38,028 bases of DNA, taken from Candidatus Zambryskiibacteriota bacterium. GTDB taxonomy: Bacteria; Patescibacteriota; Minisyncoccia; Phycocordibacterales; WO2-35-19. Shown here piece by piece: positions 1 through 28,895 of the stretch. A model generated the notes under the pieces. The model made no database searches and was not told the origin of the DNA. It saw only the letters and a list, made by a program, of their open reading frames with translations. The stretch spans positions 1-38,028 of the forward strand of contig JAZDOB010000003.1 in the NCBI GenBank assembly GCA_043799105.1. The letters run 5' to 3'. Every line of letters starts with the position of its first letter. Position 1 is the stretch's first letter. Both the position numbers and the translations under genes were made by a program.

Positions 1-31
1 CGATGAGAATGATTGTGATAATATTTTTCAT
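1..31 (-). CDS. 5' end of a gene running off the window (MKNIITIILI..., signal/TM-like start), probably the next gene of the copper cluster
   Basis: ATG at 31-29 regenerated by element copy 1, followed by a hydrophobic open frame to the window edge. Confidence 0.6.
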   Translation of the reverse strand, partial: MKNIITIILI

Positions 32-137
32 CCCGTTAGAAATAGAAGATTACACATTCTAAGTGCGCTCTCTTTTATTTTATTTAATCTGCTAATTTTA
101 TTTATCATAATTTTAATCTTCGTGATTTCTAACGGGA
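31..137 (-). mobile_element. Start-codon-targeted miniature inverted-repeat element, copy 1 (107 bp)
   Basis: 13-bp perfect TIR TCCCGTTAGAAAT/ATTTCTAACGGGA; direct repeat TTCA at 27-30 and 138-141 (TGAA on the gene strand). Confidence 0.85.
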
Positions 138-143
138 TTCATT

Positions 144-13348: not shown

Positions 13349-13621
13349 TTATTTCCCAAGGTATGCTTTCATTTCTTCAACCGTATGAAAAACTGGAGAA
13401 AGATTCTTGCCTTCTTTTATGTCCCTAGAAATCTTTAACAATTCGCGAATCGTTTTGGCATTAAGCCTCGGTCTTTCCACAATATCCACAGTGCAATCGC
13501 CCTCAGCTAAAGATACGGTTGCGTGTCTATAATAATCCGAGAGGGAGAAACCGCCCTTTTTGGCTTGTTTTTGAGCTTTTTCCTTAATTTTTTTATCAAC
13601 TTTAAATATTATTGTATCCAT
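13349..13621 (-). CDS. RelB/DinJ-like antitoxin
   Basis: RHH-like N-terminus, C-terminal KNLSPVFHTVEEM; directly upstream of the toxin. Confidence 0.8.
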   Translation of the reverse strand: MDTIIFKVDKKIKEKAQKQAKKGGFSLSDYYRHATVSLAEGDCTVDIVERPRLNAKTIRELLKISRDIKEGKNLSPVFHTVEEMKAYLGK

Positions 13622-13700
13622 CCCGTTAGAAATAGGAAATTTTTAATTTCCGTAGTTAATTTATAATCCCCAGGATCTCGTTAATATATTTCTAACGGGA
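13621..13700 (-). mobile_element. Start-codon-targeted element, copy 2 (80 bp)
   Basis: 14-bp TIR TCCCGTTAGAAATA; direct repeat TCCA at 13617-13620 and 13701-13704. Confidence 0.85.
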
Positions 13701-13757
13701 TCCATATATAAGAAGTATAAACGTTGTATATATCTTGTCAAGTCCAAAAGTGGATAA

Positions 13758-21962: not shown

Positions 21963-22019
21963 AAGAGTATAATTATCATATACGGCTGTGGTTGATTATA
22001 AATAAACTGAATATATGAA

Positions 22020-22087
22020 CCCCGTTAGAAATTCAGAAAACTAATGGGATTCAGTAACAATAAAAAACATGAAAACTTCTAACGGGG
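22020..22087 (+). mobile_element. Start-codon-targeted element, copy 3 (68 bp)
   Basis: TIR CCCCGTTAGAA/TTCTAACGGGG; direct repeat TGAA at 22016-22019 and 22088-22091; regenerates GTG. Confidence 0.8.
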
Positions 22088-22713
22088 TGAAAAACAAATC
22101 ATTATTAATCTTAGTCATTGTTTCTCTTCTGATCTTGCCTGGTTTGTCTTTTGCCCAGTCAACAGCTTCCGGCAATACCGAATCGGAAGATGGAGGAAAG
22201 GCAAAAGAAGTCAGAACCATAAAAGATGAGATAGAAAACAAAAAACAAATTCTCCGACAAGAGATGGCGTCAAGGACGGACGCTATAAAGAGTTCCGTTC
22301 AAGAAAGGAGACAAAACGCCGTCGATAAAGTGATAGAAAGGATAAATCAGTTCGTCAGCAACATTATCAAGAGATACGATGCCGCCACCAACCGCTTGGA
22401 AATATTGGCAGACAGAATAGATTCCAGAATAACTAAAATAGAATCCGGAAATATTGACGTTTCCAAAGCCAAAGAACTTCTAACGGTCGCCAGAGCCAAG
22501 ATAGAAATAGCCAAGGCGGGTGTCAATGACATTGCCAGCACCACCAGTAATACCACGTTTGGTTCTACTACCGCCACCGTCAAAAAAGATTTTGAAGTCA
22601 TAAAAATTCAAATAGAAAAAGCCAAAGAAGATATCAGAGTGGCCCACGCCGCATTGATAGATGTCGTTGAAAATCTAAAACCGGGCCAAAATAAGCTGGA
22701 AAAAGAAAATTAA
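22069..22713 (+). CDS. Secreted coiled-coil hypothetical protein (start ATG 22069 or GTG 22087)
   Basis: Signal peptide ending SFA; helical repeats. Confidence 0.8.
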   Translation: MKTSNGVKNKSLLILVIVSLLILPGLSFAQSTASGNTESEDGGKAKEVRTIKDEIENKKQILRQEMASRTDAIKSSVQERRQNAVDKVIERINQFVSNIIKRYDAATNRLEILADRIDSRITKIESGNIDVSKAKELLTVARAKIEIAKAGVNDIASTTSNTTFGSTTATVKKDFEVIKIQIEKAKEDIRVAHAALIDVVENLKPGQNKLEKEN

Positions 22714-24125: not shown

Positions 24126-24271
24126 CCTCATCCCCGGCCCTTCCCCTAGGCGCAGGGGAAGGGAGAGGGATATTAGGATTATCACTATGTGAGATATGTT
24201 TCCCCTCTCCTGCATCTACTCGCCCGGCGTAGCCTTGGCGAAGCGGGGGGAGAGGGGTAAGGGGTGAGGTT
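24123..24271. repeat. Inverted pair of REP-like hairpin elements, the right one interrupted by a CTTCGC-N4-GCTACG element (24219-24248)
   Basis: TAACCTCATCCCC..CCCTTCCCCT-AGGCGC-AGGGGAAGGG; CCCCTCTCC....GGAGAGGGG..GGGGTGAGGTT. Confidence 0.7.
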
Positions 24272-24310
24272 GTATTTTGGAATAATTATGCTATACTTAA
24301 AGCATATGAA

Positions 24311-24414
24311 TCCCGTTAGAAGTCACGGAAATCAAGAGCGGGGTTATTTATAAATAATTTAATTTAGTAGAAAATTGCAGTATTTAGTAATGTGATTTCC
24401 TACTTCTAACGGGA
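24311..24414 (+). mobile_element. Start-codon-targeted element, copy 4 (104 bp)
   Basis: 13-bp TIR TCCCGTTAGAAGT/ACTTCTAACGGGA; direct repeat TGAA at 24307-24310 and 24415-24418. Confidence 0.85.
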
Positions 24415-25004
24415 TGAAAAACACACAAAATTCAATATTAGTGCCAACGGTTATAGAGAAAACTCACAACGGTGAGAGGGCTTATGATATTTATTCACGA
24501 CTTTTGAAAGACAGGATCATATTTTTGGGCGGTCAGATTGAAGATACCATGGCCAACCTCATAATCGCCCAGCTCCTCTTTTTGCAATCCGAAGATTCCA
24601 AAAAAGATATTTCCCTTTATATAAACTCTCCCGGCGGTTCGGTCACTTCTACCCTCGCCATTGTAGATACAATGAAATTTATAAAACCGGATGTTTCTAC
24701 TTTTTGTGTTGGTATCGCCGCAAGTGGCGCTGCTTTGGTCCTTTCGGCAGGAACAAAAGGGAAAAGATTTATTCTCAAAAACGCCGAGGTTATGATACAT
24801 CAGCCGATAGGCGGCACCGAGGGACAGGCGACTGATATCTCCATTCACGCCAAACATATCTTGAAAACAAAAGAGAACCTGAACAAAATGCTAGCCGAAA
24901 ATACGGGGCAACCGCTCACTAAAATCGAAAATGATGTCGAGCGAGACTTCTTTATGTCCGCCGACGAAGCCAAGAAGTATGGAATAGTTGATAAGATACT
25001 CTAA
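24414..25004 (+). CDS. clpP: ATP-dependent Clp protease proteolytic subunit
   Basis: [26 protein letters not shown]. Confidence 0.98.
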
Positions 25005-25022: not shown

Positions 25023-25063
25023 TCCCCTCGCCTAAACTAGGAGAGGGGTTTGGGGGTGAGGTC
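25023..25063 (-). repeat. Single REP-like hairpin element
   Basis: CCCCTCGCCTA-AAC-TAGGAGAGGGG..GGGGGTGAGGTC. Confidence 0.6.
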
Positions 25064-26925: not shown

Positions 26926-28404
26926 TGTCAGTTCATATTCCCTGTTTTCTTCCGGATATATCGCATCCACATCCAAATAATCGCGGAGGCGCTGAGTGAG
27001 AAATAATGAAGATTTCGGTTCGCCCATTATGACAAATACTCGTTTAAGTCCTCTCCCAACCCTCTCCTTGTCAAGGAGAGGGTCACGCGAAGCGAGGGGT
27101 GAGGTCAGAGTATTTACTTTCTCCACAAATTCCAGCAAATGCTCAGAATCTTTATGAGATGAGTAGCCTGTTATATTTTCTATGGTCGCTCTGACCTTAA
27201 TCTTCTCTTTTTTTAATCTTTCCATTTTTCCATCTTTAAATATTTCAATCTCTTTGGCTCCGTCTTGAATACGCCTGCCCAACGTCCCCACCGACTGATA
27301 ACCCACTAAGATAATTGTCGCTTTGGGGTCAGGCAGATAATGCGCTTCATGATTGACTACCCTGCCCCCTTCCGACATTCCCGAGCCAGCCAAAATTATT
27401 TTAGCCCCCGATATTTTTTCTATTTCTGCAGATTCGGAAGCTCGCCCCACAATGCGCAGTCCTGGGAAATCAAAAATATCGTCCCCTTCTTTTATTTCTT
27501 TTTTAACTGATTCCTTGAAATCCTTTTGATATTTCTTATAAATATCCGTCACCTTTTCGGCCAGAGGTGAATCCAAAAATACGGGAATTTGAGGAATTTC
27601 TTTGTCCTCAACCATATTATTTATTTCGTAAAGCAAAACTTGAGTTCTCTCTATTGAAAATGCCGGCATCACTATCGTCCCGCCTCTCTTTATGCCATCC
27701 AAAATGGCTTTTTTTAATTTTTCTCTCCTTTCCGATTTGCTTTCATGATTTCTGTCTCCATAGACGCTCTCCATTACCAGATAGTCCACATCTTTAGGAA
27801 ACTCTGTGTCAGGCAAAAGAGGCGAAGGCGAATTGCCCAAATCCCCCGTGAACGCTATTTTAATCTTTTTTCCTTCCCTCTCCTTGTCAAGGAGAGGGTC
27901 ACGCGAAGCGAGGGGTGAGGACAAAACCATAATAGCCGAGCCCAAAACATGCCCCGCATCCTGCATCTCCAAAAAACAATTATCAAAAAGTTCTATTTTT
28001 TCTTCATAATTTCGCCCTTCCCAGAGAGAAAAAGTTTTGGCTATATCTCTATCTTCAAAAAGAGTTTTGTCAGGATGTCTCGTCTGCATCACTTTTAAGG
28101 CATCTGTAAGCATGGGCAAAGCGAGCTCCATGGTTTCTTTAGTAGAAATTATTTTACCTTTAAAACCGCTCCGCACGAGCTTGGGTACTCGGCCAATATG
28201 GTCCATATGGGCGTGAGTAATCAAAAGAAAATCAACATCGGCTGGATTATATTTAAAGGGCTCAAAATTTTTTTCCTCAGCAAACCTCGCCCCCTGCAAA
28301 AGACCGCAATCAATCAAGATCTTGTGGCCACCGTATTCGTACATTATGTTTGCTCCCGTCGTTGAGCCGACTCCGCCGTAAAATATAAGTTTAGGGTTGC
28401 TCAT
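26923..28404 (-). CDS. MBL-fold beta-CASP ribonuclease (alternative start 28440 inside element copy 5)
   Basis: THAHMDHIG, AGHVLGS, FTGDLG, MESVYG, GSGMSEGGR, YSSH. Confidence 0.93.
   Translation of the reverse strand: MSNPKLIFYGGVGSTTGANIMYEYGGHKILIDCGLLQGARFAEEKNFEPFKYNPADVDFLLITHAHMDHIGRVPKLVRSGFKGKIISTKETMELALPMLTDALKVMQTRHPDKTLFEDRDIAKTFSLWEGRNYEEKIELFDNCFLEMQDAGHVLGSAIMVLSSPLASRDPLLDKEREGKKIKIAFTGDLGNSPSPLLPDTEFPKDVDYLVMESVYGDRNHESKSERREKLKKAILDGIKRGGTIVMPAFSIERTQVLLYEINNMVEDKEIPQIPVFLDSPLAEKVTDIYKKYQKDFKESVKKEIKEGDDIFDFPGLRIVGRASESAEIEKISGAKIILAGSGMSEGGRVVNHEAHYLPDPKATIILVGYQSVGTLGRRIQDGAKEIEIFKDGKMERLKKEKIKVRATIENITGYSSHKDSEHLLEFVEKVNTLTSPLASRDPLLDKERVGRGLKRVFVIMGEPKSSLFLTQRLRDYLDVDAIYPEENREYELT
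27060..27104 (-). repeat. 45-bp in-frame palindromic element, copy A
   Basis: Identical to 27876-27920; encodes SPLASRDPLLDKER. Confidence 0.9.
27876..27920 (-). repeat. 45-bp in-frame palindromic element, copy B
   Basis: CCCTCTCCTT-GTC-AAGGAGAGGG TCACGCGAAGCGAGGGGTGAGG. Confidence 0.9.
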
Positions 28405-28469
28405 CCCGTTAGAAGTTTTATCATCATTAGTTTTAATCATAATCTATATATTGTGGACTTCTAACGGGA
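28404..28469 (-). mobile_element. Start-codon-targeted element, copy 5 (66 bp)
   Basis: 13-bp TIR TCCCGTTAGAAGT/ACTTCTAACGGGA; direct repeat CTCA at 28400-28403 and 28470-28473. Confidence 0.85.
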
Positions 28470-28895
28470 CTCATTTATATTTTTTAAAACTATTTGTCTG
28501 TTATATTCTCTGATGTAAGCATAAAAACAACCGGCTATCGCGCCCAAAAAGTCCATCATCAAATCCATCGTCAAATCAAAAGGATAATTCGCCTTGGCCA
28601 CCATAGTCTGCTTGAAAATTAGTTCGTAAGTTTCCCAGGATACAGCTACGAACATCGCGCCCAAAACAGAAATTAATAAGAATCTCGCCAGACTTCTTTT
28701 TGAAGGATTAAAATAATCGGAAAAGAAATAAAGCCAGACAAAAAGTAGCGACAGAGCAACACCGCCTATGAAATGGACCAAGCTGTCAAACTCGTAAATG
28801 GACCAATAGAGATGATTGACGGTAGCGATGACATGAAGAATTCCGACAATCAGAAACAAAACAAGCATCTCCGGAAAAAGTGGTTTTTTGAACAT
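28461..28895 (-). CDS. Four-TM membrane protein (VanZ/DUF2238-like H..WE..D pattern)
   Basis: DSLVHFIGG, WETYE, DLTMD. Confidence 0.75.
   Translation of the reverse strand: MFKKPLFPEMLVLFLIVGILHVIATVNHLYWSIYEFDSLVHFIGGVALSLLFVWLYFFSDYFNPSKRSLARFLLISVLGAMFVAVSWETYELIFKQTMVAKANYPFDLTMDLMMDFLGAIAGCFYAYIREYNRQIVLKNINESR

Follow-up and report, generated by a model that had tools for sequence, protein, structure and literature searches.

How can a segment of DNA settle on the start codon of a gene and leave that gene with a complete start codon of its own? The question is raised by clpP in a 38,028-nucleotide stretch of DNA from a Candidatus Zambryskiibacteriota bacterium (assembly GCA_043799105.1, contig JAZDOB010000003.1, positions 1 to 38,028 of the forward strand; the whole stretch is hereafter called the window), where a hairpin-forming insert separates an original ATG from the ATG which now opens the ClpP open reading frame (ORF). 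An earlier note, made from the sequence alone, had considered inserts of this kind a possible mobile translational control cassette. The insert and its four sister copies in the window are here interpreted, with a probability which we put at roughly three in four, as non-autonomous derivatives of an element of approximately 278 bp which is bounded by inverted repeats and carries a single gene, coding for an 86-amino-acid GIY-YIG protein, and which would move and be expressed by the routes proposed below.

The clpP gene (24414..25004, + strand) codes for 196 amino acids and matches the Pfam family CLP_protease with E = 9e-83. A -10-like hexamer, TATACT, at 24292..24297 (+), the putative clpP promoter, is followed after 8 nt by the original ATG at 24306. 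The earlier note had reported this arrangement, and the same one at 13719-13714 (-) with an ATG at 13705-13703, and both sets of coordinates were confirmed. In order, the segments at clpP are TATACT, 8 nt, ATGAAT, a 102-bp segment between CCCGTTAGAAGT and ACTTCTAACGGG, and then ATGAAAAAC, which opens the ClpP ORF. With its terminal T..A pair counted in, the insert occupies 24311..24414 (+), has inverted repeats at 24311-24325 and 24400-24414 (+), and belongs to a family of 102-106 nt of non-autonomous elements resembling MITEs (miniature inverted-repeat transposable elements). It is flanked by a 4-bp target duplication, TGAA, at 24307..24310 (+), assigned by an analysis of 4-bp repeats in which the terminal T..A was given to the element, and at 24415..24418 (+), read directly from the sequence; the rebuilt clpP start codon begins with the A at 24414, the last base of the element. 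From the original ATG a vestigial upstream ORF (uORF), MNPVRSHGNQERGYL (24306..24353, +), crosses the 5' inverted repeat and ends at a TAA at 24351-24353; full-length nuclease ORFs, described below, have a homologous N-terminus, MNPVRD. Orthologues of clpP were found in 23 of the 24 relatives searched, and the repeat pair was absent from all 23 loci (3.6 kb each). In the same genus the empty site reads TATACT or a similar hexamer, 6-8 nt and then ATGAAAAAC, the hexamers of the orthologues lying approximately 6-8 nt 5' of the ATG, and the clpP transcript looks leaderless.

The window is one contig (C32) of a draft genome of 543 kb, hereafter G000, with 40.8 % G+C, 32 contigs and approximately 90 % coding DNA. 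The 10-nt end motif of the insert occurred 13 times in the window at no more than one mismatch, against 2.38 expected, and none of 100 shuffled sequences reached 13; ten of the 13 were exact and made five inverted pairs. In the whole genome the pattern CCCGTTAGAR...YTCTAACGGG gave 34 exact inverted pairs and the reversed control pattern none. At one mismatch or fewer there were 42 pairs, which were reduced to 40 distinct copies by removing an artefact of a nested copy and a duplicate shared by contigs C1 and C32. This duplicate is a single element copy in which contig C1 ends (G000:C1:4869-4978) and the window begins (1-142); since the assembly breaks at element repeats, copy numbers in draft genomes are lower bounds.

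Thirty-five of the 40 copies lay exactly on the first start codon of an ORF (38-748 amino acids), and one was nested inside another copy at an internal ATGAA. When copies at ATGRR sites were considered, 33 of 34 were at gene starts and the remaining one was nested in another copy. After in-silico removal of the elements there were 285 first-ATG sites of this type (among 596 crude ORFs), 371 intergenic and 3849 intragenic ones, counts which are approximate, the genes having been called as greedy longest ORFs. No copy was found at any of the 371 intergenic ATGRR sites, and the enrichment at gene starts had p = 2e-11 against start-plus-intergenic sites. The suggestion that a mobile element resides on start codons was thus borne out, both by the 35 copies and by the empty clpP sites. 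The host genes include rpsD, rpmJ, pheS, murG, ftsX, tsaE and a gene for a class II aminoacyl-tRNA synthetase, and since several of them (rpsD, rpmJ, pheS, murG, ftsX) are of an essential type, host expression must survive insertion.

The terminal inverted repeats are perfect over 12-14 bp (T/C-CCCGTTAGAR...YTCTAACGGG-A/G), those of the element of approximately 278 bp being 13-14 bp long. In all 39 short copies the base 5' of CCCG was complementary to the base 3' of CGGG, being T..A in 37 and C..G in two. Counting this terminal pair as part of the element gave a flanking direct repeat of 4 bp in 34 of the 39, of 3 bp in two and of 5 bp in two, with no repeat in one; TGAA made up 21 of the 34 4-bp duplications, and TGGA, TGAG, TGCG, TTGA, CATA and TAAA were also seen. 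Because the terminal pair belongs to the element, the first base of the rebuilt start codon comes from the element. A duplication of 5-6 bp, with the terminal pair left outside the element, fitted less well (repeat lengths of 0, 2, 6 and 7), and insertion without duplication, of the IS200/IS605 type, was ruled out by flanks which covary with the target (ATGGA/ATGGA, ATGCG/ATGCG). The short copies are 60-118 bp long and their interiors form several mutually unrelated families. Relative to the host gene, the orientation of the interior was constant in 27 of 27 copies from six multi-copy families, and the element is therefore polar. By sequence comparison, then, the family integrates with a 4-bp duplication, mostly of TGAA or TGRR, almost always on an ATGA-type start codon and in a single orientation.

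The longest copy in G000 spans 277 bp (G000:C20:40290-40566). Its ORF starts 20 nt inside the element, runs through the 3' repeat and ends at a TGA formed by the host ATG plus A; the product matches the GIY-YIG family (Pfam PF01541) with 50.3 bits, the cutoff being 22.6 (E = 3e-13). Approximately 30 nt 5' of this copy there is a degenerate solo 5' end, ATGAAC-CCCGTCGAGATC, at G000:C20:40567-40610, which points to an earlier insertion, since deleted in part, at that start codon. Pairs of ends 260-290 bp apart were present in 18 of 301 genomes of the order (control, 0), and 13 of those loci contain intact ORFs of 86-90 amino acids with 61-74 % identity to the G000 copy and with a C-terminus, ..KRFLSLTG, encoded by the 3' repeat. 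A profile search returned at least 7,996 related protein clusters (8,000 candidates scored), from many Patescibacteria lineages and with no names other than 'GIY-YIG nuclease family protein', 'putative endonuclease' or 'excinuclease ABC subunit C'. Among the best 120 of these 7,996 clusters, 60 proteins were 86 and 46 were 95 amino acids long; 47 started with MxPVR, the in-frame reading of a host ATG and the 5' repeat, and 105 ended with FLSLTG.

In a collection of one genome per prokaryote species, 547 stretches encode relatives of the nuclease, and locus counts were taken from the best 80. Both repeats were present in 68 of these, with a unit of 272-289 bp (mode 278 bp), and the nuclease stop was a TGA within ATGA in 50; 51 loci were directly followed by an ORF of at least 50 amino acids or one open to the end of the locus. 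An ATG was found at -6 in 35 loci, in frame and open in 20 of them, which is above the one third expected (p = 0.003). Some loci are titled Omnitrophota, Planctomycetota, Clostridia or a Woesearchaeota archaeon. A class of full-length units with C..G ends (L086, L103, L106, L117, L118, L129, L147, L156), mostly titled as non-Patescibacteria, takes the stop of its nuclease ORF, TAA or TAG, from the flank (GTAAA/GTAGA) and not from ATGA.

As these sequences show, the upstream duplicate keeps the host ATG and reads M-N-P-V-R-D into the 5' repeat, which is the nuclease start in many full-length copies; the 3' repeat encodes the nuclease C-terminus, ..FLSLTG; and the last base of the element together with the duplicated TG(A) supplies both the nuclease stop and the rebuilt host start, in an ATGA overlap. 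The short copies have retained both ends and often a vestigial uORF. In a related genome, G037, copies of 121-122 nt share with the full-length copy of the same genome the first approximately 30 nt, including the nuclease ATG, and the last approximately 20 nt, and they also occur in tandem at a rebuilt ATGAA. The 3' ends of the short families in G000 resemble the 3' end of the nuclease ORF (..TTTCCT-RY-YTCTAACGGG). With terminal repeats, a short duplication, dispersed copies with empty sites and a longer coding relative, the short copies are, on this resemblance, MITE-like deletion derivatives of the nuclease element of approximately 278 bp. Since they derive from an element whose ORF starts at that point, the uORF to which the earlier note drew attention is a vestigial nuclease N-terminus; mobility stood, and the translational control cassette gave way to what remains of a selfish GIY-YIG nuclease element.

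The motif residues of the superfamily (two Tyr boxes, Arg, His and Glu) are among those invariant in 13 of 13 nuclease sequences (Y3, Y5, Y16, T17, G18, R24, R26, H30 and E62), and would be the catalytic ones, as in the superfamily generally. The nearest solved structures by sequence were the UPF0213 proteins 1zg2 (E = 3e-9) and 1ywl (6e-5) and the SLX1 homologue 7wme. An AlphaFold2 model of the nuclease (pLDDT 90.6) was most similar in Foldseek to UPF0213 1zg2, At-HIGLE 7wme and Slx1-Slx4, with TM scores of 0.64-0.66 and root-mean-square deviations of 2.0-2.3 A over approximately 70 residues, all with E > 0.001. The protein is thus a predicted nuclease which, from its sequence and modelled fold, belongs to the Slx1/UPF0213-like branch of the GIY-YIG superfamily. 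A classical insertion sequence (IS) was rejected, the sole ORF between the repeats being the 86-amino-acid GIY-YIG ORF, with no DDE, DEDD, HUH, serine or tyrosine transposase. A second GIY-YIG gene in G000 (G000:C19:7685-7888, L067), just 3' of a tRNA-like sequence, is 46 % identical and has no inverted repeats, and weaker nuclease matches in relatives (E = 1e-22 to 1e-31) may represent a repeat-less branch. Twenty-six pattern matches in viral contigs included no relative of the nuclease.

Of 41 related genomes, 18 contained the end-pair pattern; the number of pairs per genome ranged from 0 to 38 (control, 0). In a congener, G009, 17 of 20 copies examined were on ATG starts, and 13 of its host genes had an orthologue in G000, with the site empty in ten and occupied by an element in three, in one of them by an element of a different family. 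The start of the T2SSE ATPase gene carries a 77-nt copy in G009 and a 104-nt copy in G000, different families on one start codon, which suggests repeated hits; tandem insertions at a rebuilt ATGAA were also observed. In G033 and G009 the pattern gave nothing but short pairs and a few solitary ends, and no repeat-bounded unit of greater length with the same ends was seen. Strong nuclease matches (E <= 1e-36) were present in 7 of 18 genomes with short copies and in none of 23 without them (p = 0.0014, the relatives being non-independent).

In the mechanism which we propose, the nuclease, which is related to enzymes cleaving branched DNA, would recognise the paired repeats and make cuts, staggered by 4 nt, in the target and at the ends of the element, and repair or ligation by the host would finish the insertion. 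Termination and reinitiation at the ATGA would then serve for the translation of host genes that follow full-length copies or members of the 77-nt family. In the 24 other copies with a uORF, including all five in the window, a ribosome on the old ATG would cover the 5' arm of the hairpin, which would free the 3' arm and the host AUG, without a Shine-Dalgarno (SD) sequence, for ordinary initiation.

Several observations weigh against this reading. GIY-YIG enzymes are hydrolytic nucleases and we know of no strand-transfer chemistry for the fold, which makes the joining step the weakest part of the model. G000 holds a single full-length copy, the repeat of which reads ..GAGAC where most short copies have ..GAART, and that copy has lost the upstream ATG at -6; among the 18 related genomes with short copies, 11 had no strong nuclease match. 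The uORF stops inside the element in 28 of 32 copies, and in 24 of these the stop precedes the host ATG by 15-81 nt. In all 36 copies folded (mean -28.8 kcal/mol) the minimum-energy structure pairs part of the host AUG, so that expression of host genes behind the copies is an assumption. Four of the 40 copies are at non-ATG sites, one of them 5 nt 5' of an ATG, and the related genome G027 carries the same family in -35 and extended -10 boxes. Finally, the bias to start codons is larger than a 4-bp target accounts for, and could stem from targeting of the DNA at initiation sites or from survivorship.

The last points bear on the strongest rival, which we consider possible and clearly less probable than the proposed mechanism, namely that the position at start codons reflects survivorship: the element would insert at many 4-mers containing TGA, intragenic insertions would be lethal in so minimal a genome and intergenic ones soon deleted from a streamlined one, and copies on start codons, which could be lost only by exact excision, would persist. 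The short and variable duplication (the seven sequences from TGAA to TAAA listed above), the four copies off ATG and the genome that is approximately 90 % coding all fit such a filter, as do the G027 copies in promoter boxes, where again the downstream duplicate rebuilds the motif. Against it, the 371 intergenic ATGRR sites are empty while 33 of 34 ATGRR copies are at gene starts, the T2SSE ATPase start was hit by different families in two congeners, and rebuilt ATGAA sites received tandem insertions. In G027, which belongs to another family of the same order, approximately 6 of 17 copies (loci L045-L061) are at TTGAC, with GTTGACA rebuilt downstream, approximately 5 of 17 are in TG-N-TATAAT-like boxes, and only one of 17 is on an ATG start.

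How the genes behind the copies are translated was approached with uORF, frame and fold statistics over 36 copies genome-wide. The distances between the original ATG and the host start noted earlier for the five window copies (111, 84, 72, 108 and 70 nt) were reproduced, as was the finding that the MNPVR../MDPVR../MSPVR.. ORFs stop inside the element in all five, 28-81 nt before the host start. The observation that four of these five distances are in frame turned out to be an accident of the small sample: over the 36 copies the distance modulo 3 (0/1/2) was 9/14/13. With these frames and the internal stops, in-frame translation through the element was rejected. An upstream ATG was present in 32 of the 36 copies and missing in four, and the uORFs are 6-34 codons long. 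In four 77-nt copies a 28-codon ORF stays open between the old ATG and the ATGA overlap despite diverged interiors, and in four further copies the uORF is closed by a TAA located in the repeat, 4 nt ahead of the host ATG. Translational coupling, one of the routes suggested earlier, therefore finds support in these four 77-nt copies and in the ATGA overlap of 50 of 80 full-length loci; on these sequences it belongs to the design of the parent element and is retained in the 77-nt family.

The earlier suggestion that clpP and similar hosts are apparently leaderless held for clpP and did not extend to a specificity of the element. A -10-like hexamer was found 5-9 nt 5' of the start in 12 of 29 element genes and in 167 of 553 others (p = 0.22), and specific targeting of leaderless genes or transcription starts was not supported. 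The rebuilt ATG was correctly said to have no clear SD, which is nothing special in this genome, where an SD-like 4-mer was found 4-11 nt upstream of no more than 55 of 553 genes. The -10-like hexamers are most frequent at a gap of 6-7 nt from the ATG (16 % and 6 % of genes), and because SD sequences are few and this peak near the ATG is sharp, leaderless and SD-less initiation is probably common.

The stem described earlier as burying the rebuilt start was also found at clpP, where the A and U of the host AUG lie inside the predicted stem and the copy folds with -36.5 kcal/mol (z = -5.66; none of 200 shuffles was as stable). Stems of this stability, with the mean over the 36 copies given above, would be compatible with a hairpin that is removed or cut in the RNA, for example by an RNase III-type enzyme as in the Correia elements of Neisseria, leaving a near-leaderless 5' end; leaderless and SD-less starts being widespread, a processed end near the AUG could be translated. 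Such removal is unlikely, as an Rfam scan of the window found two tRNAs and no other family at gathering score, the interiors are unrelated among families, and the full-length copies need translation through the 3' repeat, which speaks against obligatory cleavage there.

An outward promoter within the element, from which the host gene would be transcribed, possibly leaderless from the rebuilt ATG, is more doubtful still. The fixed orientation (27 of 27) would be compatible with a directional signal, and one copy (C30:6866) has TATAAT abutting the 5' repeat in place of the upstream ATG. The nuclease ORF already accounts for the fixed orientation, the interiors differ among families, a consensus scan of the clpP copy found no promoter-like site, and the 12 nt 5' of the ATG are conserved repeat, ..AYTTCTAACGGG, with no -10-like hexamer at the typical gap of 6-7 nt. 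Programmed bypassing of the ribosome from codons near the upstream ATG to matched codons past the hairpin, as in T4 gene 60, where a stop directly follows the take-off codon and take-off and landing codons match, has in its favour a stable hairpin between duplicated codons and is scarcely credible, given that no stop follows the putative take-off site, that uORF lengths and gaps (66-124 nt) vary widely without frame constraint, that the upstream ATG is absent in four of 36 copies, that the parent element encodes a protein in that space, and that bypassing would add nothing because the host ORF has a complete start codon of its own.

The four sister copies in the window have the same architecture as the one at clpP. 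The copy at 27..142 (-), of the 104-nt family, comprises an element at 31-137, with TTCA (+ strand) duplicated at 27-30 and 138-141. Its host gene, which runs beyond the contig end, has its ATG at 31-29, and the old ATG is at 142-140. A copy of the 76-78-nt family at 13617..13705 (-) has its element at 13621-13700 and the duplication TCCA (+ strand); its host ATG, at 13621-13619, opens a 90-amino-acid ORF, its old ATG is at 13705-13703, and TTGACA-N16-TATACT lies upstream. That ORF (13352-13621, -), called an antitoxin in the earlier note, had no Pfam match at E <= 1e-5, and the name is unconfirmed. The copy at 22015..22091 (+), of a 66-nt family and with the terminal pair C..G, has its element at 22020-22087, the duplication TGAA and the old ATG at 22015, and the rebuilt host start at 22087 is GTG because the first base of the start codon comes from the element end. 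The host of a 64-nt copy at 28400..28474 (-), with its element at 28404-28469 and the duplication CTCA (+ strand), is a beta-CASP/metallo-beta-lactamase RNase-like gene coding for 493 amino acids, which starts with the ATG at 28404-28402; the old ATG is at 28474-28472.

A second, G+C-rich repeat family, CCCCTCTCC ... GGAGAGGGG ... GGGGTGAGG, occurs in the window at 24150-24275, 25040-25062, 27060-27105 and 27876-27921, two of these copies apparently within the beta-CASP gene. It has about 16-28 motif matches genome-wide and is also found 5' of clpP in several relatives.

Should the nuclease prove to drive mobility, the GIY-YIG family would join the known transposase chemistries and the lower size limit for autonomous mobile elements would be a new one. 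The broader proposal, which we regard as evenly poised, is that the element represents a new class of prokaryotic transposable element, at approximately 278 bp probably the smallest autonomous one, whose sole protein is an 86-amino-acid Slx1-like GIY-YIG structure-specific nuclease and which has neither start nor stop signals of its own: with TGAA duplicated at an ATGA start codon, the start would be taken from the host gene, the stop from the duplicated target, and a rebuilt, coupled start would be returned to the host, the choice of target (start codons, and -35 and extended -10 boxes in one lineage) perhaps reflecting, beyond sequence, a recognition of distorted DNA where transcription or translation begins. 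One 4-bp duplication serves three ends, the parasite's start, the parasite's stop and the host's start. In a minimal genome this design is tolerated at dozens of essential genes, those for ribosomal proteins, aminoacyl-tRNA synthetases and ClpP and murein and division genes among them. More than 7,900 clusters whose present name is 'GIY-YIG nuclease family protein' or 'excinuclease ABC subunit C' probably represent element genes, and the 95-amino-acid forms would be fusions to the host start codon. For annotation, gene starts beside short copies are easily miscalled and contigs break at the copies; for the biology of the candidate phyla radiation, the copies are naturally occurring cases in which initiation of the SD-less and leaderless kinds can be tested behind a stable hairpin.

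Among known systems, the window copy is a MITE, an element of a known kind, and the repeat-bounded 86-amino-acid GIY-YIG parent that shares start and stop signals with its host was not found described. In the full-text literature covered, outside which lay most subscription journals and supplements, no description of GIY-YIG elements bounded by inverted repeats or of start-codon MITEs was found; the available text of PMC12455944 mentions a GIY-YIG gene only as a transferred gene. The Correia elements of Neisseria and the Rickettsia palindromic elements, bacterial MITEs whose transcripts form hairpins, are likewise short, multi-copy and non-coding, with terminal repeats and a short duplication, and they too show insertion polymorphism and are tolerated in or near genes of small genomes. 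They differ in that the parent here is a GIY-YIG unit of approximately 278 bp and not an IS with a DDE-type transposase, and in the start-codon target, the start rebuilt by the last base of the element and the fixed orientation. The integron attC site, RYYYAAC ... GTTRRRY, has AAC and GTT on the inner side of its paired boxes; it was rejected as a match to GTTAGAR ... YTCTAAC, in which GTT and AAC are on the outer side and the copies of which are dispersed at housekeeping genes, not arrayed.

Free-standing and intron-encoded GIY-YIG homing endonuclease genes (I-TevI, the T4 seg genes) are also selfish nuclease genes that ride on host expression signals, and the TIGR01453 model of group I intron endonucleases gave a weak match (22.8 bits, below the cutoff of 56.05). 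Unlike them, the nuclease here has 86 amino acids, no DNA-binding extension, inverted repeats, duplications and non-autonomous derivatives, and its element spreads in the manner of a transposon over dozens of loci per genome, whereas homing endonucleases target one allele. A homing endonuclease gene, which occupies one cognate site and has neither inverted repeats nor a target duplication, was rejected, since a single genome has 35 different host genes and the repeats and the 4-bp duplication are present. The standalone Slx1-like/UPF0213 proteins (1zg2, 1ywl) and eukaryotic Slx1 are the best match in sequence and fold, with a minimal GIY-YIG domain. In the available text of Dunin-Horkawicz et al. 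(2006; PMC1564403), 1zg2 and 1ywl are placed in the Slx1 cluster as its minimal standalone form, and the cluster is treated as vertically inherited cellular nucleases, with no mention there of inverted repeats or mobility; the gene here differs from the cluster as presented in that text in being bounded by repeats which encode its ends, and in behaving as a mobile element. The ATGA overlap in 50 of the 80 loci is that of ordinary stop-start coupling between adjacent bacterial genes, and here it would be made at insertion, from the last base of the element and the duplicated target, and not evolved within an operon.

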